Of a stretch of 64,000 nt of DNA, positions 9,246 to 54,069 are shown in pieces; the stretch's first letter is position 1, and every line of letters begins with the position of its first letter. The stretch spans positions 192,774 through 256,773 of the forward strand of contig CAWCQI010000027.1 of assembly GCA_963797625.1 (NCBI GenBank), given 5' to 3'. The stretch comes from an uncultured Acidobacteriota bacterium (GTDB taxonomy: Bacteria > Acidobacteriota > Vicinamibacteria > Vicinamibacterales > 2-12-FULL-66-21). Under the pieces are notes generated by a model. That model was not told where the DNA came from, ran no database searches, and saw nothing but the letters and a program-made list of their open reading frames with translations. A program made the translations under genes and the position numbers.

Positions 9246-9272
9246 CACGGATCACACGGACAACACGGATCG
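9246..9272 (+). repeat. three tandem CACGGAYMA 9-mers downstream of the hydrolase gene
   Basis: cacggatca cacggacaa cacggatcg. Same unit as at 16846-16925, 20424-20458 (minus) and 60058-60081 (minus). Confidence 0.8.
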
Positions 9273-9290: not shown

Positions 9291-9909
9291 GTGTCACGAG
9301 ACTCAGTCATCTTCGGCCTCGCCGGCGTGTTCTTCGGCATTCTCGTCGGCTGGATCATCGGCAGCCAGCAGAACGCCGCGCCGCGCGTCGCCACTCCGGC
9401 GGCAGAACGGCGCGGCCAAGTCAGGGCAGTCGACGGCGGCGCCGCTCGACGAGTCGCGCGCGGCCGCGCTGGCCCAGACGGCAAAAGGCAACCCGCAGGA
9501 TGCCGCGGTGCGACTCGAGCTCGGCAACCTCTATTTCGACTCGGAGCGCTTCGCAGATGCCGCGCGCTGGTACGAGCAGGCGATCGCCATCGAGCCGCGC
9601 AACGTCAGCGCCAGCACGGATCTCGGCATCAGCTACTACTACATGAACCAGCCCGATCGCGCGCTCCAGCAGTTCGACCGCTCGCTGGCGATTGACCCGC
9701 GTCACTCCAAGACGTTGCTGAACGTCGGCATCGTGCGCGCGTTCGGGAAAGACGATCTGGAGGGGGCCGCCGAGGCGTGGCAGCGGGTCGTGGAGTATGC
9801 GCCGGACTCGGCCGAAGGGAAGCGCGCGAAACAAGCCCTCGACAGCCTTCGCAGCGCGCATCCCAACCTGCCGGGAGGCGGTGGCGGGAGCGGCAAACCT
9901 CCAGGATAG
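9291..9909 (+). CDS. membrane-anchored TPR-repeat protein; +1 frameshift ~9400
   Basis: TM helix VIFGLAGVFFGILVGWIIG (frame of 9291) joins ..QNGAAKSGQSTAAPLDESRAAALAQTAKGNPQDAAVRLELGNLYFDSERFADAARWYEQAI (frame of 9508). TPR-like repeats follow. Confidence 0.65.
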
Positions 9910-9911
9910 CC

Positions 9912-10164
9912 ATGGTGCTCCGCCTCCTTCAGCTCCTCTTGCTCCTGGCTGTCGCACGAGCGGTCTGGCGACTCGCCAAGGGTGTCCTCGAAGGCGCGGG
10001 CTACCGACGCGTCGATGGTCCCGTGCAAAGTCGGCGTGAAGCTCGAGCGCGATCCCGTCTGCGGCACTTTCGTCTCGCCGGCCAAGGCGCCAGTACTCCG
10101 GATCGGTGGAGAGACGCTGTACTTCTGTTCGGACCGGTGCCGCCGCGAATGGGAACGCCGGTGA
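9912..10164 (+). CDS. membrane-anchored YHS/TRASH-type Cys-rich metal-binding domain protein; +1 frameshift ~10000-10025
   Basis: ATG 9912 sits 2 nt after the TPR stop. MVLRLLQLLLLLAVARAVWRL (TM helix) lies in frame 0. DPVCGTFV..YFCSDRCRREW lies in frame 1 (ORF 9982-10164). Confidence 0.55.
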
Positions 10165-10167
10165 TGC

Positions 10168-11025
10168 ATGGCTGACCGCTCAGAAGCCCAGCACCGCGCC
10201 GACATCGTCGAAGTCGGTCGCCGTCTTTATGCGCGCGGCTACACCGCCTCGAACGACGGCAACATCAGCCTCCGGCTCGACGCGTCGCGGCTGCTGATGA
10301 CGCCGACCAACGTCTGCAAGGGGTTCATGACCGTCGAGATGATGTGCATCACCGATCTCGACGGGAAGAAGATTGCCGGCGAGCGCAATCCGTCCTCCGA
10401 AATGCAGATGCACCTCGAGGTCTACCGCCAACGTCCCGAAATCCAGGCGGTGGTCCACGCACACCCGCCCATCGCCACCGGCTTCGCGGTCGCCGGTATC
10501 CCGCTCGATCGCGCGGTGCTTGCCGAGGTCGTCACCACGCTCGGGAGCGTGCCGATCGCCGAGTACGCGACGCCCTCGACCCGCGAGCTGCCTGAGGCCG
10601 TGCGCAAGTACGTCAAGGCGCACGATGGCATGCTCCTCGCCAACCACGGCGCGCTGACGCTCGGCGCCGACGTGTTCTCGGCCTACTACAAGATGGAGAC
10701 GATCGAGCACTTCGCCAAGATCAGTCTGGTGGCGCGAATGCTCGGCGGCGAGCGCCTGCTGTCGCGCGAGGAGGTCGCGCGGCTCGAGAAATTGCGCGGC
10801 TCCTACGGGATCGCCGCGCCCGCGCCGATCTGTCCCGAGCCCTCCGCCGCTGACCCGCTCGATTGCCAGGTGGTTCAGGCGCCATCGTCGACGCCAGGCG
10901 AGCGACTGGTTCCCCGGTCGCCCTCGGTGCGGCCGGGATCCGGCGTAGGCCCTGATGAGGAAATTCGGCTAACATACAGCGAGTTGACGGCGCTCATCGA
11001 GGACGCCGTACGAAGTCTCAAGTAG
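10168..11025 (+). CDS. class II aldolase/adducin-family enzyme (FucA/RhaD-like) with C-terminal encapsulation-peptide-like helix
   Basis: Zn/catalytic residues present (SSEMQMH, VVHAHPP, LLANHGALTLG). A ~55-aa Pro/Ser-rich linker follows, then the terminal amphipathic helix LTYSELTALIEDAVRSLK. Confidence 0.8.
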   Translation: MADRSEAQHRADIVEVGRRLYARGYTASNDGNISLRLDASRLLMTPTNVCKGFMTVEMMCITDLDGKKIAGERNPSSEMQMHLEVYRQRPEIQAVVHAHPPIATGFAVAGIPLDRAVLAEVVTTLGSVPIAEYATPSTRELPEAVRKYVKAHDGMLLANHGALTLGADVFSAYYKMETIEHFAKISLVARMLGGERLLSREEVARLEKLRGSYGIAAPAPICPEPSAADPLDCQVVQAPSSTPGERLVPRSPSVRPGSGVGPDEEIRLTYSELTALIEDAVRSLK

Positions 11026-11139
11026 CTATCAGCCATCAGCTGTCAGCTCTCAGCTCTCAGCTGGCGACAGTCGGACGACAAGACAGAATCACTAACAGCG
11101 GCGAGCTGACAGCTGAGAGCTGATAGCTGAGAGCTTTTT
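11024..11139 (+). terminator. long imperfect hairpin of AGCTNTC 7-mers followed by a T5 tract (terminator/attenuator-like) inside the BMC operon
   Basis: Left arm 11024-11063 and right arm 11104-11135 pair at about 28 of 32 positions. The loop is ~40 nt. ttttt at 11135-11139 lies just before the BMC-H RBS ggagg. Confidence 0.5.
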
Positions 11140-11152
11140 GTGGAGGCAGCAC

Positions 11153-11446
11153 ATGGGTGAGGCGCTCGGGATGGTCGAGACCAAAGGTCTCGTCGCGATG
11201 ATCGAGGCCGCGGACGCGATGGTCAAGGCCGCCAAGGTCACGCTCGTCGGCTGGGAAAAGATCGGCGCGGGTTATGTGACGGCAATCGTGCGCGGCGACG
11301 TCGCCGCAGTGAAGGCGGCGACCGACGCCGGCGCCGCCGCGGCGCGGCGCGTCGGAGAGCTCGTATCGGTGCACGTCATTCCGCGTCCGCATGCCAACCT
11401 CGAGGACGCGCTGCCGATCGGAAAGGCGACCGCAAGCGCGAAATGA
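11153..11446 (+). CDS. BMC-H shell protein (PduA/EutM/CcmK-type, single BMC domain)
   Basis: [63 protein letters not shown] ggagg at 11142-11146; ATG at 11153. Confidence 0.9.
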
Positions 11447-11715
11447 TCCTGGCGAAGATTGTCGGCACCGTGGTCGCCACGCGCAAAGACGACCGGCTGC
11501 TGAGCAGCAAGCTGCTCGTCGCGCGCCCGATGGATCCCCGAGGGAAGCCCGAAGGCAGCTACCTGGTAGCCGTCGACACGGTTGACGCGGGCGTCGGCGA
11601 GACGGTGCTGATCGTCAGCGGCAGCTCGGCGCGCATGGCCGCCGGCCTCAAGGATTGCCCGGTCGATGCCGCCATTGTCGGCATCGTCGATGCGATCGAA
11701 GTCAGGGAAACGTAA
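11443..11715 (+). CDS. BMC-P vertex protein (EutN/CcmL family), paralogue 1
   Basis: [71 protein letters not shown] overlap with BMC-H. Confidence 0.9.
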
Positions 11716-11993
11716 TGCAGCTCGCTCGTGTCATCGGTGAGGTCGTCGCGACGATGAAGGACGCGAATCTGGCCGCGTCGAAACTGCTGGTACTGCAGCC
11801 GCTGACTGCCGCCGGCGAGCCGGTCGGCCGCACGCTCGTCGCGCTCGATTCAGTCGGTGCGGGCGTTGGCGAGAACGTCTTCTTCGTCCGCGGCCGGGAG
11901 GCCGCGTTTCCGTTCTATCCCGCCGAGCCGCCGACCGACGCGTCGATCATCGGGATCGTCGACTACTGGCACACCGAGAGCGGCGGCGCCTAG
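11715..11993 (+). CDS. BMC-P vertex protein (EutN/CcmL family), paralogue 2
   Basis: [57 protein letters not shown]. Its ATG shares a base with the upstream TAA stop. Confidence 0.85.
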   Translation: MQLARVIGEVVATMKDANLAASKLLVLQPLTAAGEPVGRTLVALDSVGAGVGENVFFVRGREAAFPFYPAEPPTDASIIGIVDYWHTESGGA

Positions 11994-11997
11994 GCCA

Positions 11998-12277
11998 ATG
12001 CAAATCGCGCGTGTGGTCGGTACCGTGGTCTCCACGCAGAAGAACCGGAAGCTGGAGGGCGCCAAGCTGCTGCTCGTCCAGCCGCTGTCGATCGATGATG
12101 CACCGCGCGGCGTCCCGCTCATCGCGATCGATTCGGTGGGCGCCGGCATCGGCGAAAAGGTGCTGGTGGTGATCGAGGGCAAGGCCGCCGGGCGACGCGC
12201 TCGGCAAGAAAGCCGCCGCGGTCGATGCCGCGATCATCGGGATCATCGATACAATTACTTGCAATGCTGAATGCTGA
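11998..12277 (+). CDS. BMC-P vertex protein (EutN/CcmL family), paralogue 3; +1 frameshift at ~12190-12193
   Basis: MQIARVVGTVVSTQKNRKLEGAKLLLVQP..IAIDSVGAGIGEKVLVVIEGKAAG, then frame 2 gives DALGKKAAAVDAAIIGIIDTITCNAEC. The extra base lies in a ggg run. The stop codon sits inside the repeat at 12261-12342. Confidence 0.8.
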
Positions 12278-12342
12278 GTGCTGAATGTAAATGATGAATT
12301 CAGCATTTACTTCAGCATTCAGCATTCAGCACTCAGCATTGC
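12261..12342. repeat. 82-nt near-perfect palindrome of GCTGAAT/GCTGAGT heptamers centred on gaattc
   Basis: The arm gcaatgctgaatgctgagtgctgaatg matches the reverse complement of cattcagcattcagcactcagcattgc with 2 mismatches in 27. Lies between BMC-P3 and the small Cys protein. Confidence 0.85.
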
Positions 12343-12354
12343 AAGGATCAGCAT

Positions 12355-12564
12355 ATGGATGAACAGGCACTGCGCGCGATGGTCCGCGAGGCGGTGGCGA
12401 AGCGCCTGCAGACGCCCCAGCCGGTTGCGCCCGCCGCCCCCGCGGCCTTCTCGGCGCATGTGAGCCACATCCGCTACGTGCTGCCGAAGTCCGATGGGCC
12501 CTGCCTCATCGAACCGACCGTTTCCTGCAACCACTGTGGCTACTGCGAATCGCACGGACACTGA
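12355..12564 (+). CDS. small BMC-associated protein: N-terminal encapsulation-peptide-like helix, Pro/Ala linker, C-terminal C-x8-C-x2-C-x2-C motif
   Basis: MDEQALRAMVREAVAKRLQ (amphipathic), then TPQPVAPAAPAAF, then PCLIEPTVSCNHCGYCESHGH. GC3 counted by eye over 12481-12561 is 21 of 27 in this frame, against 13 of 25 in the overlapping frame. Confidence 0.6.
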   Translation: MDEQALRAMVREAVAKRLQTPQPVAPAAPAAFSAHVSHIRYVLPKSDGPCLIEPTVSCNHCGYCESHGH

Positions 12565-13525
12565 TTCGCGCCCTCGCGTCCTCCTGACCCGCCGGATCCC
12601 CGCGTCGGTCCTGTCGAAGCTCGAAGCTGGCTGCGACGTCGAGCTGTATGACGGCGGGGCGCCGCTGACGGCCGCCGAGCTCGTCAACCGGCTGCAGGGC
12701 AAGCAGGGGCTGGTCTGCGTCCTGACCGATCCAGTGAATGCAGACGTGCTGGCGGCGGCGCCGGATCTGAAGGTCGTCGCCAACATCGCCGTCGGTTACG
12801 ACAACATCAACGTCGCGGCCGCTCACGCGCGACACATCGTCGTGACCAACACACCTGACGTGCTGACCCAGTCGACCGCCGAGTTCACGTGGGCGCTGAT
12901 TCTGGCGGTGACGCGCCGGCTTGTCGAAGGCGAGCGGTTGGTGCGCAGAGGCGGCTGGAAGGGGTGGGCGCTCGACTTCATGCTCGGCATGGAGCTCGGC
13001 GGCAAGCAGCTCGGGATCATCGGCAGGGGACGGATTGGCCGCGCGGTCGCGGCCCGCGCGCCGGCATTCGGCATGACGGCGGTCTTCATGGCGAGAGAGG
13101 GACGGCCTGCCCTCGACCTGCCCGAGATGTCGCTCGACGAGCTGCTGGTCAGCTCGGACGTCATCTCAATCCACACGCCGCTGACGCCGTCGACTCGACA
13201 CTTGATCGACAAGCGAGCGCTGGCCCGGATGAAGCGGTCGGCGTATCTCGTCAACACGGCGCGCGGACCGGTCGTCGACGAAGAGGCGCTCGCCTGGGCG
13301 CTCAACGAACACTTGATTGCCGGCGCCGCGCTCGACGTCTACGAGAAGGAACCTGAAGTCTTCGCCGGGCTCCTCGGCCTCGAGAACGTCGTGCTGGCGC
13401 CGCATCTTGGCAGCGCCACGCGCGAGACGCGGACGGCGATGGCCGATCTTGCCGTGTCGAACGTGCTCGCCGTCCTTCACGGCCGTCCGGCGCTGACGCC
13501 TGTCACGCCGCGGACGGGACCCTAG
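12494..13525 (+). CDS. D-isomer-specific 2-hydroxyacid dehydrogenase (GyaR/HprA-like); 5' end unresolved
   Basis: Conserved core starts at RPRVLLTRRIP (~12571). LGIIGRGRIGRAVA (GxGxxG), NTARG, LDVYEKEP, APHLGSAT. No ATG/GTG lies just upstream of the core. ATG 12494 and GTG 12536 overlap the small ORF in a low-GC3 frame. Confidence 0.8.
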   Translation: MGPASSNRPFPATTVATANRTDTDSRPRVLLTRRIPASVLSKLEAGCDVELYDGGAPLTAAELVNRLQGKQGLVCVLTDPVNADVLAAAPDLKVVANIAVGYDNINVAAAHARHIVVTNTPDVLTQSTAEFTWALILAVTRRLVEGERLVRRGGWKGWALDFMLGMELGGKQLGIIGRGRIGRAVAARAPAFGMTAVFMAREGRPALDLPEMSLDELLVSSDVISIHTPLTPSTRHLIDKRALARMKRSAYLVNTARGPVVDEEALAWALNEHLIAGAALDVYEKEPEVFAGLLGLENVVLAPHLGSATRETRTAMADLAVSNVLAVLHGRPALTPVTPRTGP

Positions 13526-16842: not shown

Positions 16843-16845
16843 CGC

Positions 16846-16925
16846 CACGGATCACACGGATCATCGCCACGGATCAATCGGAACATCGATCACGGATCCA
16901 CGGATTACACGGATTACACGGATCA
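16846..16925 (+). repeat. array of about seven CACGGAT(C/T)A 9-mers filling the queE-queC spacer
   Basis: cacggatca cacggatca tcgc cacggatca atcggaacatcgat cacggatc cacggatta cacggatta cacggatca. Direct repeats with no complementary arm. Confidence 0.85.
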
Positions 16926-16926
16926 G

Positions 16927-17634
16927 ATGAGTCACACGGAGGACCAGAGCGGTCGGCGAGCCATCGTGCTGCTCAGCGGCGGCCTCGACTCGTTCACTGC
17001 CGCGGCGATGACGAAGTCCGAGGGCTATGAACTCTACGCCCTCAGCATCCGCTACGGCCAGATCCATGCGCGCGAGATTGAGGCGGCGCGCGCGGCGGCA
17101 CGCGCGCTCGGCGTCGCCCGGCATCTCGAGCTCGCGGTCGACCTCGCGGCGTTCGGTGGCTCGGCTCTCGTCGGTGACGGCACGATTCCGAAGGATCGCG
17201 CGCTCGAGAGCGATCACAGCATCCCGTCGACCTACGTGCCCGCGCGCAACACTGTCTTTCTCTCGCTAGCGCTCGCCTGGGCCGAGGTCGTCGGCGCAAC
17301 CGCCATCGTCATCGGCGTGAACGCGCTCGATTATTCGGGGTATCCAGACTGCCGGCCTGAGTACCTCGAGGCCTTCGAGCGCATGGCCGCACTCGCCACC
17401 AAGGCCGGCGTCGAAGGCCGGCCGCTGCAGATCCTGGCGCCACTCCTGCGTCTGTCGAAGGCCGACATCATCCGACGCGGTCTCGCGCTCGGGCTCGATT
17501 ACGCGGTCACCCACAGTTGCTACGACCCGGCGCCGTCTGGCGCGCCCTGCGGCCGTTGTGACAGTTGCCGCCTGCGAGCGAAGGGATTCGCAGAAGCCGG
17601 TGTCGCCGACCCGGTGATCGGGGGACATTCGTGA
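16927..17634 (+). CDS. queC: 7-cyano-7-deazaguanine synthase
   Basis: PP-loop [11 protein letters not shown]; C-terminal zinc cysteines [14 protein letters not shown]. Confidence 0.9.
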
Positions 17635-20423: not shown

Positions 20424-20458
20424 TCCGTCTGGTCCGTGTTATCCGTGTTATCCGCGGC
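20424..20458 (-). repeat. CACGGATAA-type 9-mers (sense on minus strand) between the DUF4340 gene and dacB
   Basis: The minus strand reads cggataacacggataacacggaccagacgga. Confidence 0.75.
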
Positions 20459-28842: not shown

Positions 28843-29103
28843 ATGGCCACCTGTCCCGAATGTGATGCCGAAATCGAGATCGACGAATTCGACGTCGACA
28901 AGGGCGACCTGATTAGTTGCCCCGAGTGCGGCTCCAATCTCGAAGTGACCACCACTTCTCCGGTCGAGCTCGAAGCAGTCGATGAAGACGACGACGACGA
29001 CGATGACGACGAGGACGACGACGAAGTGGAGGATGACGACGCCGAACTCGACGACGAAGATGACGTAGACGACGACGCGAACGGGGAGGACTGGGAAGAG
29101 TGA
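28843..29103 (+). CDS. LysW-like zinc-ribbon amino-group-carrier-type protein with an unusually long poly-Asp/Glu tail
   Basis: MATCPECDAEIEIDEFDVDKGDLISCPECGSNLEVTTTSPVELEAV, then ~40 acidic residues ending GEDWEE (compare the LysW terminus EDWGE). Confidence 0.6.
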   Translation: MATCPECDAEIEIDEFDVDKGDLISCPECGSNLEVTTTSPVELEAVDEDDDDDDDDEDDDEVEDDDAELDDEDDVDDDANGEDWEE

Positions 29104-33679: not shown

Positions 33680-33708
33680 CTCAGGGCTCAAGGCTCAGGG
33701 GTTCAGGG
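33680..33708. repeat. four tandem CTCARGG-type heptamers between convergent pal and pyrF
   Basis: ctcaggg ctcaagg ctcaggg gttcaggg. Overlaps the pyrF stop codon (33703-33705). Confidence 0.7.
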
Positions 33709-34432
33709 CCGCAGGGAACGAGCAATTTCCTCTGCGGCCCGTCGCGCGTTGGGGGCGGCGATGATCGGTCTCCCGACGACGATGTAGCTGGCGCCGGCGG
33801 CGATGGCTTCGGCCGGCCCCAGCGTTCGTTCCTGGTCGTCCTTTTTTGCGCTCGTTCCGGCCGCGCCGTCCGGCCGCTCCGCCACGAATACCCGGTGTCA
33901 CGATCGTGAAATCGGGTCCGCAACGTTTCCGAATCAACGGCGTCTCGAGAGGTGAGGCCACGACACCGTCGAGGCCGGCCGCCTGCGAGAGATCGGCAAG
34001 CCGCAGCACCTGATCGAGGACTGGCGTGTGGACGCCGGTTTCATCAAGCATGGCCTCGTTCATGCTGGTGAGCACGGTCACGGCGATCACGAGCGGCGGA
34101 TGGCGCCGCTCGCGCGCGGCGGTCTCGCGCGCCGCGTCGCGCGCCGCCTGCATCATCCGCGTGCCGCCCGAGGCGTGAACGTTGACCATCCAGACGCCGA
34201 GCGACGTCGCGGCCGCTACCGCGGTCGCCACCGTGTTGGGAATGTCGTGAAACTTCAGGTCGAGGAAAACGCGGGTGCCGTTGGCCGCGAGCGTCCGGAC
34301 GATATCTGGGCCTTCGGTGGTGAAAAGACGGCTGCCGACTTTGAAGGCGCCGACGACATCGCGGAGGTTGTTGCCGAGCGCCAGAGCCGCGACGCCGTCC
34401 TGTACGTCCAGGGCGACTACGAGCTGATCCAT
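33703..34432 (-). CDS. pyrF: orotidine-5'-phosphate decarboxylase; +1 frameshift ~33883
   Basis: MDQLVVALD..VFLDLKFHDIPNT..TIVTPGIRGG, then the frame of ORF 33703-33885 gives AERPDGAAGTSAKKDDQERTLGP..YIVVGRPI. Confidence 0.85.
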
Positions 34433-35355
34433 GCCTGTTCCCGCCGCGCCAGATCGAGGCTGCCGGTCAGATCGGCGAGGCGCGTGAGTCCCTGCCGTTC
34501 CATGTAGGCGGTCAATCCCTCGAGGAGCGAGCGCCAGATGAATGGATCGACGAAGTTGGCCGTGCCGACCTGGACGGCGGTCGCGCCGGCAATCATGAAC
34601 TCGAGGACATCGGTGGCGCTGTTGATGCCGCCCATGCCGATGATCGGCAGCTTCACCGCCCGCCGGCACTCGTAGACCATTCGCACGGCAATCGGCCGGA
34701 TGGCCGGGCCGCTCAGCCCGCCGACGATGTTCGACAGCTTCGGGCGCCTGGTTTCGACGTCGATCGCCATCGCGAGGAATGTGTTCACAAGGGACACGGC
34801 ATCCGCGCCCGCCTCTTCCGCAGCGCGCGCGAACGACGCGACATCGGTCACGTTCGGGGTGAGTTTCGGGATCACCGGCAGGCGGGTGACCTTGCGAACC
34901 GCGCTGACGACGCTATGGGTGCCGGTCAGACTGCAGCCGAACGTGATGCCGCCTTCCTTGATGTTGGGGCACGAGATGTTGAGCTCGAGGGCGGCAACAC
35001 CCTCGGCATCGCTCAGGATTCGCGCGAGCTCGACGTACTCATCGATGGTCGTCCCGCAGATGTTGACGAAGACGATGGCGCGGCGATCGCGCAACTCGGG
35101 CAGCTTCTCGCGCACGAAACGGTGTACGCCGATGCCCTGCAGGCCGATCGCGTTGAGCATCCCCGATGGAGTCTCGACGATACGCGGCGGCGGATGCCCC
35201 TGGCGTTCGGCGAGGAACAACCCCTTGACCGCCACGCCGCCGAGCGTCGAGAGGTCGACGATATCGCTGTACTCGACGCCGTAACCGAAGCACCCGCTCG
35301 CCGCGATCAGCGGGTTCGGCAGTCGAAGCGATCCGATTGAAACCGACAGGTCCAT
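34417..35355 (-). CDS. pyrD: dihydroorotate dehydrogenase, catalytic subunit (class 1B type)
   Basis: Starts MDLSVSIGSLRLPNPLIAASGCFGYG (ATG 35355). NISCPN; GMGGI. Upstream part of the 493-aa ORF rejected. Confidence 0.9.
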   Translation of the reverse strand: MDLSVSIGSLRLPNPLIAASGCFGYGVEYSDIVDLSTLGGVAVKGLFLAERQGHPPPRIVETPSGMLNAIGLQGIGVHRFVREKLPELRDRRAIVFVNICGTTIDEYVELARILSDAEGVAALELNISCPNIKEGGITFGCSLTGTHSVVSAVRKVTRLPVIPKLTPNVTDVASFARAAEEAGADAVSLVNTFLAMAIDVETRRPKLSNIVGGLSGPAIRPIAVRMVYECRRAVKLPIIGMGGINSATDVLEFMIAGATAVQVGTANFVDPFIWRSLLEGLTAYMERQGLTRLADLTGSLDLARREQAWISS

Positions 35356-35357
35356 CG

Positions 35358-36182
35358 TCAATGCGCCAATGCTTCCCAAACGATACGCTCGGCGTCGAAG
35401 ACCGGGCCTTCGAGGCAGGAACGAACAAAGTGTGGTGGCGCGCCGACCTGTCGCGTCAGGACGACGCAGCTGTAGCAGCCACCAAGGGCGCAACCCATGA
35501 CCTGCTCCAGCGAGACATCGCAGGGCTGGCCGTGGAATTCCGCGATAGTCGCGACCGCGCGCATCATCGGCGTCGGTCCGCAGACGTAGAGCTTCACCCG
35601 GCCGCCCGGCCGTAGCGCCGCGAGCGCATCGTTCAGCGGGCCGGTGATGAAGCCCTTGGCGCCGAGGCTGCCGTCCTCTGTCGAGGCGACAATGCGAACG
35701 CCGAGGCGCTCGAACGCCTCGATGCAGTAAAGATCGCGCGCGCGTCGCGCGCCATAGAAAAGCGTTGCCGGTGTTCCACGGCGCGCGAGCGCTTCGGCGA
35801 GCGTCAGGAAGGGCGCCAGGCCCACGCCTCCTGCCACCATCCACGCCTGAACCGGCGGTTCGACCGGCTCGAACGGCCGGCCCAAAGGCCCGAGGCACGA
35901 GAGCCGGGCGCCCGGTTCGGCGTCGTAGATCAACCGCGTGCCGACTCCGATGCGCTTGTTGAGGATCGACAGCCCCAGAGGATGTCCGTTGCTATCGCGG
36001 AGAATTTCGAAGATGGAAAACGGCCGCCGCAGCAGCGGATCGGTGGTTCGCGAGGGTTTGACCATCACGAACTGACCCGGGCGCGCGAGCCCGGCGATCT
36101 CCGCCGCGTCAAGTGCAAGCACGCTGTAGTCGTCGGACAGGCGCGTGTTCGACAGGACCGCCGCATCGATATCGCAAGGCAC
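35358..36182 (-). CDS. pyrK: dihydroorotate dehydrogenase electron-transfer subunit
   Basis: PGQFVMVKP, RPFSI (FAD), C-terminal 2Fe-2S cysteines CDVSLEQVMGCALGGCYSC. Start set at GTG 36182; GTG 36197 is also possible. Confidence 0.8.
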   Translation of the reverse strand: MPCDIDAAVLSNTRLSDDYSVLALDAAEIAGLARPGQFVMVKPSRTTDPLLRRPFSIFEILRDSNGHPLGLSILNKRIGVGTRLIYDAEPGARLSCLGPLGRPFEPVEPPVQAWMVAGGVGLAPFLTLAEALARRGTPATLFYGARRARDLYCIEAFERLGVRIVASTEDGSLGAKGFITGPLNDALAALRPGGRVKLYVCGPTPMMRAVATIAEFHGQPCDVSLEQVMGCALGGCYSCVVLTRQVGAPPHFVRSCLEGPVFDAERIVWEALAH

Positions 36183-36205
36183 ACCCGAAGTATACACTTC
36201 GGGTG
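36182..36205. other. 24-nt palindrome spanning the back-to-back GTG codons of pyrK and the divergent phosphodiesterase-like gene
   Basis: cacccgaagt atac acttcgggtg: 10-bp stem with a 4-nt loop. Confidence 0.6.
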
Positions 36206-37950
36206 ATGCGGTTCCTCCGGATGCTGACCAACTCGCTGCTCGCAGGCGCGCTTGGCGCGGCATTCCTCACCATCATCGTCCTTCAGCTCAATCCGAACGT
36301 GCCGCTCGTGTCGGGGACGACGTGGCGCTTGTTTGTCACGCTCGCGCTCTTCTACGGGGTTCACCTGGCAGTGCTTTTCTATCTGCTGATGGTTGGTGGC
36401 GAGTTCATCGGCGTGTACGCCCTCTCGCCCGGGTGGGTGAGCGTTCGCGTGCTCGCGTGGCTCGCGGCAGCATCGGCGGCGGGTGCGGCTGTATTGATGT
36501 GGCTGAACGTCAGCGGATTCTCGGTGGCGCTCGATGAAACCGCGGCCCGGCGGATGACCGCCGGTGCGGCCGCGACGGCCGCGACCGCCATCGTGTTGCT
36601 GGGACTGGCAGGCGCGCACTACTCGTTCGGGCGGCGAGGCAGTCGTGTTGGCGCCGGGCTGCTGGCGATCGCGGTAATTCGGCTCGCTGGCGCTGCCGAT
36701 CGCTGCGCGCGGGCCCGCAGTCGCAGGGCTCGATGGATCGCTCGCGATGACGATGGCCGACCGAGCGACGCCGGTGTCAGGCCCGCGTATCGTCATGCTG
36801 CTGCTCGACGGCGCGTCTCTCGAATACATCTGGCCGGGCGTGGCTGGCGGTCGGCTCCCGAACTTCGCGCGAATCCTCGAGACTGGCGCGTCGATGGATC
36901 TGGCGACGGTCCGGCCCACCGGCCCCGATCCCGTCTGGGGTGCAGTCGCCACCGGGATGTATCCCGCCAAAAACGGCGTGCGGTCGCCATCTGTCTACTA
37001 CGTGCGCGGCGACACGCGTCCGCTCGCCCTCTTGCCGGATCATTGCTTCTCGCACGTCCTCGTGCATCTCGGGCTTCTGCGCCGCGAACCGAATACGTCG
37101 CGATCGCTCCGCGCGCGGCCCCTCTGGAGCATTCTGGCCGACGCCGGCATCACCGCCGGCGTCGTGCGCTGGCCGCTGACCTTTCCGGCGCAGCCGGTTC
37201 ACGGTTTCGTGGTGAGCGACCGTTTCCATCAACTCCTGGGATCGTTCCAGGAGTTCGACCAGAGTGCGGCGTATCCGTCCGATGTGCTGCCGGTGGCCCG
37301 CAGCGCGTTTGCCGACGCCGGACAAACACCCGACTGGCTGCCGTCGCACGATGTCCGACACCGGTTCGCTGTCGCCGGAGGCGTCCGCTGGCCTGCGCGA
37401 CCAGCTCTACAGTCGTGCCATCCGCGATTTGCGAGCGCAATGGCCCGTGCAGTTGTCGGCGGTGCGATACCAGGGACTCGACACGGTCGGCCACTACAAC
37501 TTGCGGTACACGGAGCCCCGGGACGCTGCTGGCGCCAGCGAAGACGAACGTCGGCGTCGCCTCCAAGTGATCGATCGTTACTACGGCTACATCGACAGCG
37601 AGATCGGCGCGGCGATGTCTGAGTTGCTGCCCGGGGATCTGCTGATGGTCGTGTCGGGCTTCGGCATGCAACCGCCGAATGCCGTCAAGCGCCTGCTCGG
37701 CCGCTTGATTGGCGATCCGATGAGCGGCACGCATGAGCGCGCGCCCGACGGCTTTCTGCTCGCGTATGGGACGACGGTCGAGCCGGGCCGGCACCAGCGC
37801 GGATCGATTGTCGACGTCGCGCCGACCGTCCTCTATTTCCTGGGCCTTCCTGTCGGCCGTGACATGGACGGATACGCGCGCGCGGATTTGTTCCGGAGCA
37901 CGTTCACCGCCGAACGGCCGATTGCCTTTGTACCGACACATAATCGGTGA
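36206..37950 (+). CDS. membrane-anchored alkaline-phosphatase-superfamily protein (type I phosphodiesterase/nucleotide pyrophosphatase-like); two +1 frameshifts (~36680, ~37348)
   Basis: About 5 N-terminal TM helices (frame 2). ..AIAVI|GSLALPIAARG..RIVMLLLDGASLEYIW (frame 0). ..LPSH|MSDTGSLSPE..YQGLDTVGHY..MVVSGFGM (frame 1). Confidence 0.55.
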
Positions 37951-37960
37951 AACGAACAGG

Positions 37961-38175
37961 ACAGTCGGCAGTCGGCGGTCGTCAGTCGGCAGTCGCAGTC
38001 GTTAGTCTGAGTCGGCAGTCGCAGTCCTCAGTCGCAGTCCTCAGTCCAAGTCGTCAGTCGCAACGGGTCGACTTGGACTGTCGACTCGAACTCGACTAGG
38101 ACTGTCGAGTTGGACTGACTGACTCAGACTGAAGACTGTGACTGCCGACTGACGACCGCCGACTGACGACTGTCG
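37961..38175. repeat. ~215-nt imperfect palindrome built from CAGTCG/GACTG units, upstream of the pyrR operon
   Basis: The outer ~45-55 nt of the arms pair with only about 3 mismatches (gtcggcggtcgtcagtcggcagtc.cagtc.t.agtctgagtc). Inner stem cagtccaagtc/gacttggactg with a 16-nt apical loop at 38054-38069. Confidence 0.8.
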
Positions 38176-38322
38176 TGTTACACTACTGCAGCTCTTTAAG
38201 TGCGTCCCTGTGAGGCCGCCAAGAGGTGCCACGTTGAATACTCCGTCCACGCCTTCAACTTTCCGCTCGGTCTCTGCACGATTCCGCTCCACGCCTTTCC
38301 GGATCTGCCGACAGAGGTCCAG

Positions 38323-38859
38323 ATGCCGCAGGTAATGGACGCGGATCGGATGTCGCGCGCGTTGACGCGGATCGCCCACGAGATTCTCGAGCGGAACCGC
38401 GGGCTCGACGAGCTGGCGCTCGTCGGCATCCGGACGCGAGGCGTGCCGATCGCCCGGCGGCTGGCGCGAGCCCTCAAGGAGATCAACGGCGACGACGTGC
38501 CGACCGGCGCGCTCGACATCACGCTCTATCGCGATGATCTGATGCGCCATCCGGTCGGGCCGCAGCCGCTCGTCCGGCGTACCGAGATCCCCTTTTCGAT
38601 CGACGATCGAAAAATCATGCTCGTCGACGACGTGCTGTACACCGGCCGGACGATCCGCGCGGCACTCGACGCGCTGATCGATTTTGGGCGTCCTCGCGTC
38701 ATCCAGCTGATCGCCCTCGTCGACCGCGGGCATCGCGAGCTGCCGATCAAGGCCGACTACGTCGGGAAGAATCTGCCGACGTCGCTCAAGCAGAGCGTCC
38801 AGGTCCGCCTCCAGGAGATTGACGGAATCGACGAGATTGTCATCGAGGGTGAGCCATGA
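38323..38859 (+). CDS. pyrR: bifunctional pyrimidine regulatory protein / uracil phosphoribosyltransferase
   Basis: [62 protein letters not shown] at 38323. Confidence 0.9.
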
Positions 38860-39876
38860 CTACGCGAACCGCGGATCGGCCGGAGATTTCCGAGCGGGAC
38901 CTCGTCCAGGGACCGGCCGCGGCGGCGTTGAAGTCGCGCCATCTCCTGGGCATCGCGGGTCTCGGCGCCGATGAGATCACGCTCGATCCTGGACACCGCC
39001 GAGGCGATGAAAGAGATCGGCGGCCGCGCCATCAAGAAAGTGCCGACGCTCCGGGGCCGCACGGTCGTCAATCTGTTCTTCGAGCCGAGCACGCGCACGC
39101 GCACCTCGTTCGAAATCGCCGAAAAACGTCTGAGCGCCGACACACTCAGCATCGCGACGGCGACCTCGAGCGTGACCAAAGGCGAAACGCTCGTCGACAC
39201 CGTCCGAAATCTCGAGGCGATGTCACCCGACATGATCGTCATGCGCCACGCGTCGTCAGGCGCCCCAGAGCTGCTGGCGCGGATCTGCCGCTCGGCGATC
39301 ATCAACGCCGGCGACGGCATGCACGAGCATCCGACGCAGGCGCTCCTCGATGCCTTCACCATCCGGGCGCACAAGGGACGGCTCGCGGGCCTCAAAGTCG
39401 CGATCGTCGGCGACCTGCTCCACAGCCGCGTGTTTCGGTCGAACGTCCTCCTGCTCAAGACGATGGGCGCCGACGTCTGGGCCTGCGGCCCGGCGACGCT
39501 GATTCCGCCCGGGCTCGAGCGGCTCGGCGCGCAGCCGACCACGTCGGTCGACGAGGCGGTGACCGACGCCGACGTCGTGATGCTGCTGCGCATCCAGCAC
39601 GAACGCATGGAGAGCCATTTCATCCCGTCGGTGCGCGAATACTTCACGCTCTTTGGCATGACCCCCGAGCGCGTCCGCCTCGCGCGGGAGGACGCCATCA
39701 TCATGCATCCCGGGCCGATGAATCGCGGCGTTGAGATCGATTCCGCGGTGGCCGACGGTCCGCACTCGGTCATTCTCGAGCAGGTCTCGAACGGCGTGGC
39801 CGTGCGGATGGCCGTGCTCTATCTGCTGTCAGGAAGAGAAGGACGCGACGACGAGTCGCTCGGGGAGGGCCGGTAG
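38856..39876 (+). CDS. pyrB: aspartate carbamoyltransferase catalytic subunit; +1 frameshift ~38985
   Basis: ATGA overlap with pyrR. ..[15 protein letters not shown] then, after removing one base, [32 protein letters not shown]. Confidence 0.9.
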
Positions 39877-39882
39877 GCCACG

Positions 39883-41179
39883 ATGAACTTACTGTTGAAG
39901 AACGGGCGGGTGGTCGATCCCGCGAGCGGCCGGGACGGCGAATTCGATGTGTTGATCGAAGACGGCGTGATCCGGCGCGTCGGCAAGAACCTTCCAGCCA
40001 ATGGCGCCGAGGTGTTCGAGGTCGCGCGCGGCTGGGTGGTCACGCCGGGGCTGATCGATATTCACGTGCACCTGCGCGAGCCTGGTCAGGAACACAAGGA
40101 GACCGTCGCCACCGGCGCGGCTTCGGCCGTCGCCGGCGGATTCACCGCCGTCGCCTGCATGCCGAACACCGACCCGGTCAACGACCACGCCGGCATCACC
40201 GAGTTCATCCTCAAGAAAGCCGCCGAAGCGAAACTGGCGCGCGTGTATCCGATCGGCGCAGTGTCGCTCGGCTCGAAGGGGGAGCAGCTCGCCGAGCTCG
40301 GCGAGCAGAAGGCTGCCGGCTGCGTGGCGTTCACCGACGATGGCCGTCCCGTGGCCACGGCGCTTCTGATGCGCCGTGCGCTCGAGTACGCCGGCATGCT
40401 CGGCGTGCCAATCGTCAACCATTGCGAGGACCCCTCGCTCAAGGGAGACGGCGTCGCGCACGAGGGTTACCACGCCTCGGCGCTCGGGCTGCGCGGGATT
40501 CCCGGCGTCGCCGAATCGCTGATGGTGGAGCGCGACGTGTCGCTGGCCGAGCTGACCGGTGGCCACGTGCACATTGCGCACATGAGCGCGCGGCAGTCGC
40601 TCCGGGCCGTGCGGGCGGGCAAGGAACGCGGCGTCCACGTCACCTGCGAGGTCGCCCCGCACCATTTCACGCTGACCGACGCGGCGCTCGAGGGCCCCCC
40701 GAAGTACGACACGAACCTCAAGATGAACCCGCCCCTCCGCGAGGACGCGGATCGCGACGCCATGCTCGAGGGGATCGCTGACGGCAGCGTCGACGTGATT
40801 GCCACCGACCACGCCCCGCATCACGCCGACGAGAAAATGCTCGAATTCGACCGCGCGCCCTTCGGCATCGTCGGGCTCGAAACGGCAGTGCCGATCGTTT
40901 GCGATCGGCTGTTGCACGCCGGAAAGATCTCCTGGAGCCGATTCGTCGAGCTCCTCTCGGTCAATCCCGCCAGGGTCTTTCGATTACCCGGCGGGTCGCT
41001 GGCCGAGGGCGCCGCCGCCGACATCACGGTGATTGCCCCGGACGCGCGGGTCACGATCAGCGCGGCCGCGTTGCGGTCGAAGTCCAAGAACACGCCGTTT
41101 GACGGCTGGGAGCTGCGCGGCGCCGTCGTCGGCGACGCTCGTCGGGGGCCGCGTCGTCTACCGCAACACCGCTTTCTGA
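39883..41179 (+). CDS. pyrC: dihydroorotase; +1 frameshift ~41131
   Basis: DIHVHLREPG..DHAPH. After ..ELRGAVV, frame 2 gives ATLVGGRVVYRNTAF* (TGA 41177-41179). The 550-aa ORF tail is read-through. Confidence 0.9.
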
Positions 41180-41197
41180 TTCGGAGAACCACGGGCA

Positions 41198-41821
41198 ATG
41201 ACGGTCAATCGTCTGGAAGACCTGCGGGATCAGGCACTCAAGAAGCTTCAGACTTTCGAGGTGCTCATGACCGACGGGCATTTCGACTACCACAACGGAT
41301 TTCACGGTCGGGTCTACCTGAATCCTCACCAGCTGCTGCAGCATCCATCGACGATCTGGCGTTTGGCGCAGGATCTGCTCGACACGCTGCCGCTGCCCCT
41401 TATCGAACAGACCGACATTGTTGCCGGACCAGCCACCGGCGGCGCGCTCGTCGCGCATACGCTGGCGGGGCTGATCGACGGGCGTCGTGCCTTGAGCCAT
41501 CCGGCGTGCAGCTTTGCCCCCTTCACGCCGGGTGAGGGCAAGTTCACGCTGCGGAGCTTCTATGCGCGCTTGATGCGAGGCAAACGCGTGCTGCTGGCCG
41601 ACGACGTGCGGAATACCGGGAAGACGTTTCAACGCTGCGCGAAGCTTGTCGCAGAGGCCGGAGGCACCGTGCTCGCAACCGTCGAAATCTGCGATCGGAT
41701 GGAAGCCATCGTCGACCTCGGCGTTCCCAACTACGCCCTCGTCGAGTACCGCGCCCCCGAGAACTATCGCGAGGCCGAGTGCCCGATGTGCGCGGCCGGT
41801 GAGCCGGTGACGGCGTTTTAG
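41198..41821 (+). CDS. type I phosphoribosyltransferase, divergent PyrE-like paralogue
   Basis: PRPP loop VLLADDVRNTGKT. TDGHFDYHNGFHGRVYL replaces the GHFxLSSGxHS box seen in the pyrE gene at 49764. C-terminal CPMC. Confidence 0.65.
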   Translation: MTVNRLEDLRDQALKKLQTFEVLMTDGHFDYHNGFHGRVYLNPHQLLQHPSTIWRLAQDLLDTLPLPLIEQTDIVAGPATGGALVAHTLAGLIDGRRALSHPACSFAPFTPGEGKFTLRSFYARLMRGKRVLLADDVRNTGKTFQRCAKLVAEAGGTVLATVEICDRMEAIVDLGVPNYALVEYRAPENYREAECPMCAAGEPVTAF

Positions 41822-41921
41822 GCTCATGGCTCATGGCTCAAGGCTCAGGGCTCAGGCAAGACCTCGGAACAGTCGCTCGAAGATCTTGCTTGCCTTGAGC
41901 CTTGAGCCTGAGCCATGAGCC
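41821..41921. repeat. 101-nt hairpin with arms of GGCTCAN heptamers
   Basis: Left arm ggctcat ggctcat ggctcaa ggctcag ggctcag gcaag; loop ~24 nt; right arm cttgcttgccttgagccttgagcctgagccatgagcc. The right arm contains ATG 41915. Confidence 0.8.
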
Positions 41922-42794
41922 CTGCAGCCATCCCTCGCCTCCTCACTCGACGCGCTCTATCGCGACTACAACCGCGAAGAATCGGCGAGCGATCCCGTCC
42001 ACCGCGTGCGGCCGTTCTCGGACTCTCGCGATCGGGAAGTGGCGGGCTTCTGCGCGGCGGCGCTCGCCTTCGGTCGGGTCGCGAGTGTGCTGAACACGAT
42101 CGACACCTTGTTCGCGATTCTGGGTCCTCGGCCGGCAGAATACGTCAGGCGGTTCGATCCGGCCGGCAGTCATCCTGAACTGCGAGCGATGGTCCATCGA
42201 TGGACCCGAGGCGTGGACATCGCCGCCCTCCTCTGGCTGTTGCGGCAGATGCTCGAGCGGTCCGGGTCGATCGAGGCCTTTTTCCTCGAAGGCGATTCCG
42301 AAGCAACCCCTGATGTCGGTGCGGCGCTCGACAGTTTCTCGACGAGGGCGCTCGCGCTCGACATCCGGCGAGCCTACGGCCGCGTGCCGAAGCGTCCGGG
42401 GGTGTGCTATTTCTTTCCGCGTCCCTCAGCGGGCAGCGCCTGCAAGCGTCTGAACCTGTTCCTCCGCTGGATGGTGCGCCGCGACGCGGTCGACCTGGGC
42501 GTCTGGACGCGACTCTCGCCAGCGCGACTCGTCGTCCCGCTCGACACGCACGTGATCCGGCTGGGCCGCTGCCTGAGGCTGACGCGGTACGTCAGTCCTG
42601 GCTGGCGGATGGCATCCGACATCACTCACTCACTCCGTGACCTCGACGCGACGGATCCCGTCCGGTTCGATTATTCGATCTGTCACGTCGGCATGATGAA
42701 CGCCTGCGGCTTCGGCCGGAAGCAGGGAGACTCGCAATGTCCGCTCAAAGGGCTATGCCATCCACGACCGCGTCGCGCGCGACGTTCCGGCTGA
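41915..42794 (+). CDS. TIGR02757/DUF2400 family protein; 5' end uncertain (possible +1 indel ~41930)
   Basis: SLDALYRDYNREESASDPVHRVRPF..FCAAALAFGRV..CYFFP..LNLFLRWMVR..VPLDTHV..CHVGMMNACGF. ATG 41915 lies one frame back from the conserved body. Confidence 0.6.
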
Positions 42795-43273
42795 TCGCGG
42801 CGCTGATCCTCGGGATCGTGCTCGGCGCCGCCGGCGCGTTCCTGCTGACCGCGCGGACGACGGAGCCGGCGCGCCGCCGCGTGATGGCCCGGATCTATTC
42901 CCCCGACAAGTCACGAGTGGCAGTGGCGCTCGAGGCGCCATGCGCGGAAGGCTTCTGTCAGGAATTGCGGCTCGGCACTTCTCAGGACGCGAGTCAGGTC
43001 GTCTCGTCGCTCACCAACAGAACGTGCGGCGAGATCGCCTGGACACCCGACGGCAAGAGAGTGGCGTTCGTGATCGACGGCTCAGAGATGGCGGTGTACG
43101 ACGTGCAGACCGCCAAACTCGCGGGAACCGTCCGGCTCCTGACATCGGAGGCGGCGCTGACCCGCATCGCGCGCGGTGTGACGTTCTCCGAGAACGGCCG
43201 CGCCGCGACGTTCGACGACTGCCCACGGACGCAGTCAGGCTGTCGTGCTGGCGTGGTGGGAGTGCCACAGTGA
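42737..43273 (+). CDS. hypothetical membrane-anchored protein
   Basis: TM helix FRLIAALILGIVLGAAGAFLL followed by a ~130-aa Cys-containing domain. GC3 bias supports coding. No family recognised. Confidence 0.4.
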   Translation: MSAQRAMPSTTASRATFRLIAALILGIVLGAAGAFLLTARTTEPARRRVMARIYSPDKSRVAVALEAPCAEGFCQELRLGTSQDASQVVSSLTNRTCGEIAWTPDGKRVAFVIDGSEMAVYDVQTAKLAGTVRLLTSEAALTRIARGVTFSENGRAATFDDCPRTQSGCRAGVVGVPQ

Positions 43274-43400
43274 GACAGGAGACAGGAGACAGGAGCTCGA
43301 GCGCGCAGCGAATCCGCACCGACACTTTCTGACAACGGTGCCAACCTTCAGCTTCTCCTGTCTCATCTCCTATCTTCTATCTCCTGTCTTCTGTCTCCTG
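43272..43400. repeat. hairpin-type element: (GAGACAG)x3 arm, ~56-nt spacer, CTCCTGT/CTNNTCT arm
   Basis: gagacaggagacaggagacaggag at 43272-43295 is partly complementary to cttctcctgtctcatctcctatcttctatctcctgtcttctgtctcctg at 43352-43400. Lies between convergent genes and overlaps the GT4 3' end. Confidence 0.7.
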
Positions 43401-44504
43401 ATCTTCGACATGCGGTCTCAGCGCGACGCGCTGGTAGACGCGTAGCGTCTCCTTCAGCATCCGCTCGGCGCTGAACCGCTGGCCGGCGCGTGCGCGCCCG
43501 GCCTTTCCCATCCGCTCGCGAAGCGCGGGGTCCTTCAAGAGGCGCACGATGGCGTCAGCCAGCGCCGCGTCGTTCCGCGCGGGAACGAGGATGCCGGTGT
43601 CGCCGTCGACCACGACCTCCGGGATGCCACCGGTGGCGGTCGCCACGATCGGCTTCCCGGCTGCCATCGCATCGAGCAGCGACGTGCCCAGGCCCTCGGT
43701 GATAGAGCTCATCACGAAAATGTCGAACGCCTTGTGGAGCGAGAGCACGTCGGGCCGGAAACCGGCGAGCAGGACGTGTTTCTCCAGGCGATGCTCCCGG
43801 ATCTGCCGCTCGAGCGCCGGGCGCAGCTCACCCTCGCCGGCGATGACGAAGCGCGCGTCGGGCACCTTGCGGACGACGAGCGCTGCCGCTTCGATGAGGT
43901 GCCGCTGTCCCTTGTGCGGGACGAGCGCCGCGACGTTCCCGACGATCGGCGCCTGATGTGGGAGAAACAGCTGCTCGTGAAGATTGGCGGGCGGCGCCAT
44001 CGAGACCCGCTCGAGGTCGATGCCCTCGTGCACGGTGACCGTTCGCGCCGCCGGCACGCCATCGGCGACCAGCATCGCGCGAATCGCTTCAGAGGCGCAG
44101 ATGAAGCAATCCACTTGTCGATACTTCCATCGCGAGAGCGCGCCGTTGCGCAGGTGAAAGTCGACCCGCCGCGAGGCGATGAGCGGCGGTTTGGCGAGTT
44201 GGGTGCTCATCGACAACGCCAGCCCAGCCATCGCGACGCCGTGCGGGTCGTGGGCATGGACCACGTCAGGCTTGAGCGTTTTGAGCAGGCGCGACAAACG
44301 CCAGGCCGCGCCGAGATCCATCTCGGTCTTGGGTGCCAGCGGGATGAGGTCCAGACCTTCCTGCGCGCGCTGCCGCAGTTCGCCGCCGGGATGCGCGACG
44401 AGCATCGTCCGATGACCGAGGCCGCGCAGGCCCAGCACGGTGACGAGGACCTGGTTCTGACCACCACGCCACGTGCGCGCCGTGTCGATGTGGAGAGAAA
44501 ACAT
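43377..44504 (-). CDS. glycosyltransferase family 4 (GT-B)
   Basis: VHAHDPHG.., FVMSSITEGLGTSLLDAMAAGKPIVAT, GILVP. The last ~8 codons are encoded by the repeat. Confidence 0.8.
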   Translation of the reverse strand: MFSLHIDTARTWRGGQNQVLVTVLGLRGLGHRTMLVAHPGGELRQRAQEGLDLIPLAPKTEMDLGAAWRLSRLLKTLKPDVVHAHDPHGVAMAGLALSMSTQLAKPPLIASRRVDFHLRNGALSRWKYRQVDCFICASEAIRAMLVADGVPAARTVTVHEGIDLERVSMAPPANLHEQLFLPHQAPIVGNVAALVPHKGQRHLIEAAALVVRKVPDARFVIAGEGELRPALERQIREHRLEKHVLLAGFRPDVLSLHKAFDIFVMSSITEGLGTSLLDAMAAGKPIVATATGGIPEVVVDGDTGILVPARNDAALADAIVRLLKDPALRERMGKAGRARAGQRFSAERMLKETLRVYQRVALRPHVEDQETEDRR

Positions 44505-45383: not shown

Positions 45384-45478
45384 CAGCTACCGGCTACCAG
45401 CTGCCAGCCTCCAGCGTCGGAGGGGAGGTTCTTCGTCGCTGGAAGCTGGGAGCTGGAAGCTGGAGCCGGCAGCGCTGG
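45384..45478. repeat. 95-nt hairpin with CCAGCTN/GGAAGCT periodic arms
   Basis: cagctaccggctaccagctgccagcctccagcg, 20-nt loop, cgctggaagctgggagctggaagctggagccggcagcgctgg. The inner 20 nt pair at about 18 of 20 positions. Confidence 0.8.
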
Positions 45479-54029: not shown

Positions 54030-54069
54030 AGGTCGCGGCCGGATTGGCCAGTAAGGTAAAATCAACAGC

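Follow-up and report, generated by a model that had tools for sequence, protein, structure and literature searches.

Nine co-directional genes at positions 9291-13525 of a 64,000-nucleotide stretch of DNA from an uncultured Acidobacteriota bacterium (contig CAWCQI010000027.1; this whole stretch is called the window below) almost certainly make up the main locus for a bacterial microcompartment (BMC), an organelle with a protein shell, of the ACI type. The genes were delimited by open reading frame (ORF) listing, sequence reading and Pfam searches. The ACI type was catalogued in 2021 as exclusive to Acidobacteria, chiefly those of subdivisions 4 and 6 (Sutter, Melnicki, Schulz, Woyke & Kerfeld, Nat Commun 12:3809, PMC8217296; Supplementary Data 2). 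An earlier reading of the window from its letters alone (the original prediction) had referred to catalogued BMC types that are restricted to Acidobacteria and of unknown function, and comparison of the gene content with the published catalogue identifies the locus as one of them, ACI. By definition, ACI loci encode an aldolase of family PF00596 whose C terminus carries an encapsulation peptide (EP), a PF00389/PF02826 hydroxyacid dehydrogenase, an adjacent triplet of BMC-P genes with at least one BMC-H gene, and a protein of about 80 amino acids in which conserved Cys residues accompany an N-terminal EP (PMC8217296). All of the ACI features that can be read from the window were found. The host lineage, confirmed from taxonomy, is Acidobacteriota, Vicinamibacterales (subdivision 6); the PF00596 aldolase ends in a predicted EP; a D-2-hydroxyacid dehydrogenase (HADH) with both Pfam domains lies in the main locus, although it is separable from the rest of the cassette among relatives; one BMC-H gene accompanies the BMC-P triplet; and a short protein, here of 69 amino acids, combines a predicted N-terminal EP with conserved Cys residues. 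The ACI main locus lacks an aldehyde dehydrogenase (AldDh), as does this one. ACI is also listed with an unknown protein bearing three conserved histidines (PMC8217296), which was not recognised here, where the remaining unknowns are membrane TPR and TRASH proteins. No defining difference from ACI was found at this locus.

Domain content, the point-by-point match to the catalogue, host taxonomy, shared gene order, and the conservation of the EPs together with their predicted helices make it very probable that the locus serves an ACI metabolosome with the aldolase and the small Cys-rich protein (Cys protein) inside the shell and an AldDh encoded elsewhere. The BMC gene content first claimed, consisting of an aldolase, one BMC-H, three BMC-P and an HADH, was borne out by Pfam matches for each, and the motifs quoted at that time (SSEMQMH, VVHAHPP, ANHGA, LTYSELTALIEDAVRSLK, EQALRAMVREAVAKRL and GxGxxG) were all found. 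The features of the block are collected in Table 1.

Table 1. Genes and intergenic hairpins of the BMC block (positions in the window)
Feature	Position	Strand	Evidence
Membrane-anchored TPR protein, 205 aa corrected; first gene of conserved block	9291..9909	+	TPR Pfam families; intact 205-aa orthologue in L001-L006
TRASH/YHS-like protein, 83 aa, N-terminal hydrophobic anchor, C-x21-C-x3-C	9912..10164	+	Weak YHS match
Class II (Zn) aldolase-family enzyme, 285 aa	10168..11025	+	Aldolase_II PF00596, 2.8e-49
Intercistronic hairpin, tandem 7-nt units, aldolase/BMC-H spacer	11024..11135	.	Inverted repeats 26-37 nt, 84-92% complementary
BMC-H shell hexamer protein, 97 aa, PRPH motif	11153..11446 (ORF also from 11138)	+	PF00936, 3e-30
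BMC-P paralogue 1 (P1), shell vertex pentamer, 90 aa	11443..11715	+	PF03319 (EutN_CcmL), 6.5e-32
BMC-P paralogue 2 (P2), 92 aa	11715..11993	+	PF03319, 6.5e-27
BMC-P paralogue 3 (P3), 92 aa corrected	11998..12277 (as read 11992/11998-12270)	+	PF03319, 4e-23, profile positions 1-68 only
Second heptamer-repeat hairpin, BMC-P3/Cys-protein spacer	12258..12345	.	Arms 30 nt, 93% complementary
Cys-rich protein, 69 aa, putative cargo	12355..12564	+	No Pfam family
D-2-hydroxyacid dehydrogenase (HADH), 329 aa	12536..13525	+	2-Hacid_dh_C/2-Hacid_dh (PF02826/PF00389), 7e-55 and 3e-31

When the shell ORFs were run against BMC profiles, PF00936 matched one and PF03319 matched three of them. The BMC-H protein is PduA/EutM-like and, at 144 bits, exceeds the cut-off of 133 set for the NCBIfam EutM model. 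Its orthologues are 84-100% identical and occur as a single copy per locus, and the 120 best matches to it included no satellite BMC-H paralogue, all being main-locus variants and nearly all 88-100% identical. The three BMC-P paralogues are mutually 41-53% identical, and each has a separate orthologue series. Each complete related locus gave one EutM-like and three EutN-like matches. Gene spacing in the block is tight, with several junctions overlapping. Of the overlaps originally described between the shell genes, those of H/P1 (4 nt) and P1/P2 (1 nt) are present, whereas P2 and P3 are separated by a gap of 4 nt.

Related loci were numbered from L001 onward, and 177 of them were examined with up to 10 kb of flanking sequence. 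The gene order TPR-TRASH-aldolase-H-P-P-P-Cys protein-HADH-Nth-cyclophilin-DUF72 is held among the best 80 loci down to about 70% aldolase identity, and the identical order also occurs in soil and marine metagenome contigs. The best 80 aldolase relatives all come from metagenome-assembled genomes (MAGs) of Acidobacteriota/Vicinamibacterales (gp6). With at least 521 GTDB species genomes encoding the aldolase, ACI compartments appear to be very common in soil Acidobacteria.

The two proteins that we place inside the shell each carry a conserved terminal amphipathic helix beyond a disordered linker. In the aldolase, the phosphate-binding, Glu and three-His Zn motifs are all retained in the core (residues 1-205), and the catalytic and Zn motifs are invariant among orthologues. 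Residues 213-247 (10804-10908) form a conserved block, YGIxAPAPIC...CQxVxAP..RLV, with two invariant Cys residues, C222 and C233, followed by a variable linker and a C-terminal helix, EIRLTYxELxxLIExA, at residues 265-285 (10960-11022), whose sequence is invariant at the aldolase C terminus in 81 unique orthologues. The linker and terminal helix of the original description are therefore present, but the region is not a plain Pro/Ser-rich linker, because it holds the conserved block with the Cys pair. Both Cys residues of the pair occur in all full-length aldolase tails from loci with shell genes. The helix of the Cys protein, M-[NDT]-E-x-x-L-R-x-x-V-R-x-A-x-A-R, is conserved at residues 3-19. 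AlphaFold2 (AF2) predicted helices at both termini, as had been anticipated: residues 3-19 of the Cys protein were helical with pLDDT values of 82-89, and the aldolase tail was disordered with a helix at residues 270-284, at low confidence. Conservation and predicted structure make it plausible that both terminal helices are EPs.

In the Cys protein, a variable Pro/Ala linker joins the helix to a C-terminal module, HxSH...C-x7-C-x2-C-x2-C-x-S-x-G-H, that ends the protein. All four Cys residues (C50, C58, C61 and C64) show little or no variation. Thus, the C-terminal part does contain the four Cys residues first reported, but in the spacing C50-x7-C58-x2-C61-x2-C64 rather than with an initial C-x8-C. 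A Cys-protein profile search over 1.84 billion representatives gave 271 matches, which are the clusters that the family forms at 50% identity; at 90% identity, its clusters number more than 7000. Among the 150 matches listed, the relatives are all stand-alone proteins of 45-135 amino acids, and in all look-ups that returned upstream sequence the gene lay 3' of the third BMC-P gene. The Cys protein belongs to no Pfam or NCBIfam family, Pfam searches at E<=10 over 32 family members gave nothing consistent, and Foldseek found no match to its fold in the PDB. The only PDB matches of the Cys-protein profile were to the structural-zinc lobe of medium-chain dehydrogenases/reductases (C-x2-C-x2-C-x7-C; IEPGVPCGHCRYC versus IEPTVSCNHCGYC, E 0.017), in which, however, the order of the Cys residues is mirrored relative to the Cys protein. 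Homology to this zinc lobe of the medium-chain alcohol dehydrogenases is not supported, as hhalign against E. coli Tdh gave a probability of 2.6% and there was no Pfam ADH_N match; the resemblance is at the level of the motif only. We also considered whether the module corresponds to the 50-aa domain that follows the EP of the ACI AldDh (PMC8217296), but this equivalence was not supported, as no fusion was present among the 150 matches listed (of 271). Least certain among our assignments, the Cys4 module may bind a metal centre, with Zn(Cys)4 and an Fe-S cluster as the two candidates.

Natural variants among the related loci set the boundaries of the BMC cassette. HADH is missing from seven cassette-bearing loci (L017, L039, L054, L060, L068, L075 and L077). 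Three contigs (L120, L133 and L144) contain TPR-TRASH-HADH-Nth but lack genes for the aldolase, the shell and the Cys protein, and their HADH sequences form a separate lineage. In L160/L169, an EP-tagged aldolase adjoins HADH; this lineage has lost its shell and Cys-protein genes as well as the two Cys residues of the aldolase tail, and nests near BMC-bearing lineages. The cassette occurs without the Cys protein in L101, L104, L105, L107-L109 and L121. A marine lineage that lacks the Cys protein retains the Cys pair of the aldolase tail, so that strict co-variation of the pair with the Cys protein was rejected. From these boundaries, the separable evolutionary unit is aldolase-H-P-P-P-Cys protein, placed between the TPR-TRASH pair and the HADH-Nth-cyclophilin block. 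The same variants argue that HADH and TPR/TRASH, all three conserved and co-expressed with the cassette, are neighbours rather than core parts. The TPR gene lies upstream of the aldolase gene in essentially all complete related loci and is also found in the cassette-less contigs. The suggestion that TPR and TRASH belong to the same unit as the BMC genes stands in so far as they are co-transcribed, with a median TRASH-aldolase junction of -4 nt (the P3-Cys protein junction has the same median), but both genes persist without the cassette. In the TRASH protein, DPVCG...FCS..C is invariant over 49 orthologues, and the YHS match is also weak in L092.

Across the 64 kb, Pfam searches over about 55 ORFs detected no AldDh, PduL/Pta, acetate kinase, BMC-T or further shell genes. 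The E. coli proteins EutE, EutD, EutG and EutS, used as tblastn queries, had no match in the window, nor in the 177 related loci with their flanks of up to 10 kb. A canonical core, in which AldDh, phosphotransacylase (PTAC) and alcohol dehydrogenase are encoded with the shell genes, is not what this locus contains. The absence of an AldDh/PTAC core in cis, on which the original prediction was right for both the window and the surroundings of the related loci, is solid, agrees with the catalogue's description, and is a statement about the locus. The further proposal of a minimal, non-canonical metabolosome, self-sufficient without an AldDh, in which the neighbouring HADH takes the place of the AldDh/PTAC core and processes the aldolase product, is unlikely. 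Such a compartment would be consistent with the lack of AldDh, PTAC and Fe-dependent alcohol dehydrogenase homologues in the window and near related loci, with the adjacency of HADH to the Cys-protein gene, often with translational coupling, in soil and marine lineages, and with the aldolase-HADH adjacency retained in one lineage without shell genes. However, most ACI genomes are reported to encode an EP-tagged AldDh, with the EP near its C terminus, on a satellite locus (Sutter et al. 2021, PMC8217296), and therefore a 64-kb window cannot show that a metabolosome is AldDh-less. Moreover, HADH is absent from the seven cassette loci named above and is kept in the three BMC-less contigs.

The properties of HADH itself also speak against its replacing the core. 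Its start is most likely GTG 12536, as in relatives, and not ATG 12494. The Cys-protein gene is overlapped at its 3' end by HADH. Neither terminus of the HADH protein is extended in a way that could provide an EP; among its relatives, C-terminal tails are mostly <=11 aa, and the few longer ones resemble frameshift or read-through artefacts. It is of the glyoxylate/hydroxypyruvate reductase kind, matching the T. thermophilus glycerate dehydrogenase/glyoxylate reductase 2CUK at 6e-80, and scores 328 bits with the NCBIfam glyoxylate reductase model, whose cut-off is 455. Glyoxylate or hydroxypyruvate is the substrate reduced by the characterised enzymes nearest to it, and enzymes of this kind take 2-oxo acids, not the hydroxy-aldehydes expected of the aldolase, which argues against the proposed handling of the aldolase product. 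Most likely, HADH is an accessory enzyme that acts outside the shell, on 2-oxo/2-hydroxy-acid products or in redox balance, rather than a core component. We also give little credence to the idea that the Vicinamibacterales compartment is truly AldDh-less, with the aldolase-family enzyme and the Cys4 mini-protein as its only targeted cargo, and with the tail Cys pair and the Cys4 module together able to form a metal or redox centre. If true, an AldDh-less compartment with such a Cys centre would represent chemistry beyond the aldehyde-oxidation paradigm.

Several observations weigh against an ACI metabolosome with its AldDh encoded elsewhere. Neither the 64 kb nor the 10-kb surroundings of the 177 related loci contained a EutE-like gene; three genes of the block are frameshifted as read; and the helix assigned as the aldolase EP has low AF2 confidence. 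The aldolase falls below all NCBIfam equivalog cut-offs, and the model that it matches best describes a decarboxylase rather than an aldolase. In addition, the literature gives no experimental test of substrate, metal or encapsulation for any ACI locus, and literature searches for work on ACI after 2021 found neither experimental nor further bioinformatic studies.

The frameshifts have a simple probable cause. One extra base each breaks the TPR gene (near 9411), the TRASH gene (near 10026) and the BMC-P3 gene (near 12189). Three single-base insertions that disrupt three genes inside 3 kb could mean that the locus is decaying in this strain and that no complete compartment is made, which we regard as very improbable. 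Each insertion is private to the window and is missing from five independent assemblies that are 95-98% identical at the DNA level. Removal of the insertions gives proteins close to those of relatives, and the corrected TRASH and BMC-P3 products are identical to those of L001; corrected BMC-P3 has 92 amino acids and ends at 12277, whereas the uncorrected ORF ends at 12270. Related long-read assemblies bear private frameshifts of their own in other genes, and the lineage comes from MAGs that the Microflora Danica project obtained by nanopore sequencing. An unrelated gene of the window, for an RseP-like M50 protease (54055-55395), is also split, with Pfam positions 1-106 and 107-221 in separate frames, by an apparent indel error. 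The private nature of the insertions, the private frameshifts of relatives, the split RseP gene and the nanopore origin imply that the three frameshifts are probably assembly (nanopore) errors and not decay.

The NCBIfam scores of the aldolase bear on a different alternative, in which the enzyme is a 3-oxo-tetronate-4-phosphate-type decarboxylase: the substrate would be a four-carbon acid-sugar phosphate, HADH would make the oxo-acid, and the products would be CO2 and dihydroxyacetone phosphate (DHAP). The best NCBIfam model is indeed that decarboxylase (OxoTetrPhDc), at 145 bits compared to 126 bits for FucA. The PDB matches are split likewise, with 6VOQ ('Aldolase') at the top, slightly above FucA structures, and the HADH family takes in 4-phosphoerythronate dehydrogenase. 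However, 145 bits is far under the model's cut-off of 250 and near the FucA score, the locus encodes neither a kinase nor an isomerase of the corresponding pathway, the EP-tagged AldDh of ACI genomes points to an aldehyde intermediate, and HADH is separable from the cassette. We consider this alternative quite improbable and return to the ACI metabolosome with an aldolase inside and an AldDh encoded elsewhere, whose chemistry at this locus we infer as follows. The terminal helices would bring the aldolase and the small, putatively metal-binding Cys protein into the shell. There, the aldolase would cleave a ketose-1-phosphate-type sugar phosphate to DHAP and a reactive hydroxy-aldehyde of the lactaldehyde/glycolaldehyde type, which an EP-bearing acylating AldDh, encoded elsewhere in the genome, would oxidise. 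HADH, without a targeting peptide, would work outside the shell in an accessory role. In the least certain step, the Cys4 module might serve cargo organisation or electron transfer.

The BMC block is flanked by housekeeping genes, with an alpha/beta hydrolase and an acyltransferase upstream and endonuclease III, cyclophilin, DUF72, QueE and QueC downstream, and G+C content is even over the whole 64-kb window. The hairpin between the aldolase and BMC-H genes has a folding energy of about -60 kcal/mol in near-identical loci, and a structured spacer (< -30 kcal/mol) is present at this position in 40 of 71 related loci. The second hairpin, which separates BMC-P3 from the Cys-protein gene, is confined to the closest relatives, and the spacer itself is missing from most other loci. 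Intergenic hairpins whose arms are tandem 7-nt arrays were found at 1420-1450, 2410-2469, 11024-11135, 12258-12345, 37962-38172, 41821-41931, 43267-43406 and 45384-45464. The unit varies by site (AGCTNTC, AATGCTG, CAGTCGT, GGCTCAT, ACAGGAG and others), and in related species the aldolase/BMC-H spacer has a like architecture, yet is built from other units. A BMC-specific role of the intercistronic hairpins was rejected, as the same heptamer-repeat type stands at many unrelated intergenic sites; these hairpins look like a genome-wide class of elements resembling repetitive extragenic palindromes. Tandem 9-nt repeats (CACGGATCA and its complement) occur at 9246-9271, 16843-16940 and 20433-20454, one array lying directly 5' of TPR, the first gene in the BMC block. 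Elsewhere in the window, an Asp-rich stretch is encoded by about 30 tandem copies of GAC (28987-29077), and an ordinary housekeeping cluster for pyrimidine biosynthesis (33695-41535) encodes orotidine monophosphate decarboxylase, dihydroorotate dehydrogenase with its Fe-S subunit, a phosphoribosyltransferase, aspartate carbamoyltransferase and dihydroorotase.

This locus in itself brings nothing new to the ACI catalogue, of which no member has been characterised. New beyond the catalogue are the boundaries of the cassette, the separability of TPR, TRASH and HADH, the Cys pair of the aldolase tail and the corrected spacing of the Cys4 module. The natural variants narrow the problem, in that they define a six-gene cassette, and the tail Cys pair and the Cys4 module are flagged as targets.

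Two groups of known metabolosomes resemble this locus. The EP-tagged class II aldolase with a BMC-P triplet had been taken as the hallmark of the Planctomycetes/Verrucomicrobia (PVM) metabolosome. There is a resemblance, as the PVM and PVM-like fucose-rhamnose metabolosomes have a BMC-P triplet and, in the role of putative signature enzyme, a class II aldolase with an EP, and the proposed chemistry, from sugar phosphate to DHAP and an aldehyde, would be the same. The assignment fails on host and enzymes: PVM hosts are Planctomycetes and Verrucomicrobia, whereas the host here is an Acidobacteriota bacterium, and PVM loci hold AldDh, PTAC and acetate kinase, none of which is encoded in the 64 kb. 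The loci of the HO, MIC3 and SPU5 types also differ from this one, in that they contain AldDh, BMC-T and (SPU) DERA/RpiB, which are absent here, and the SPU5 aldolase has been proposed to join glyceraldehyde 3-phosphate and DHAP and not to generate an aldehyde (PMC11585597). What these types share with our locus is the BMC-P triplet and a class II aldolase (PF00596), accessory in their case, that ends in an EP. In the catalogue, the HO/MIC3 aldolases, and not those of PVM, are the nearest to the ACI aldolase (PMC8217296).

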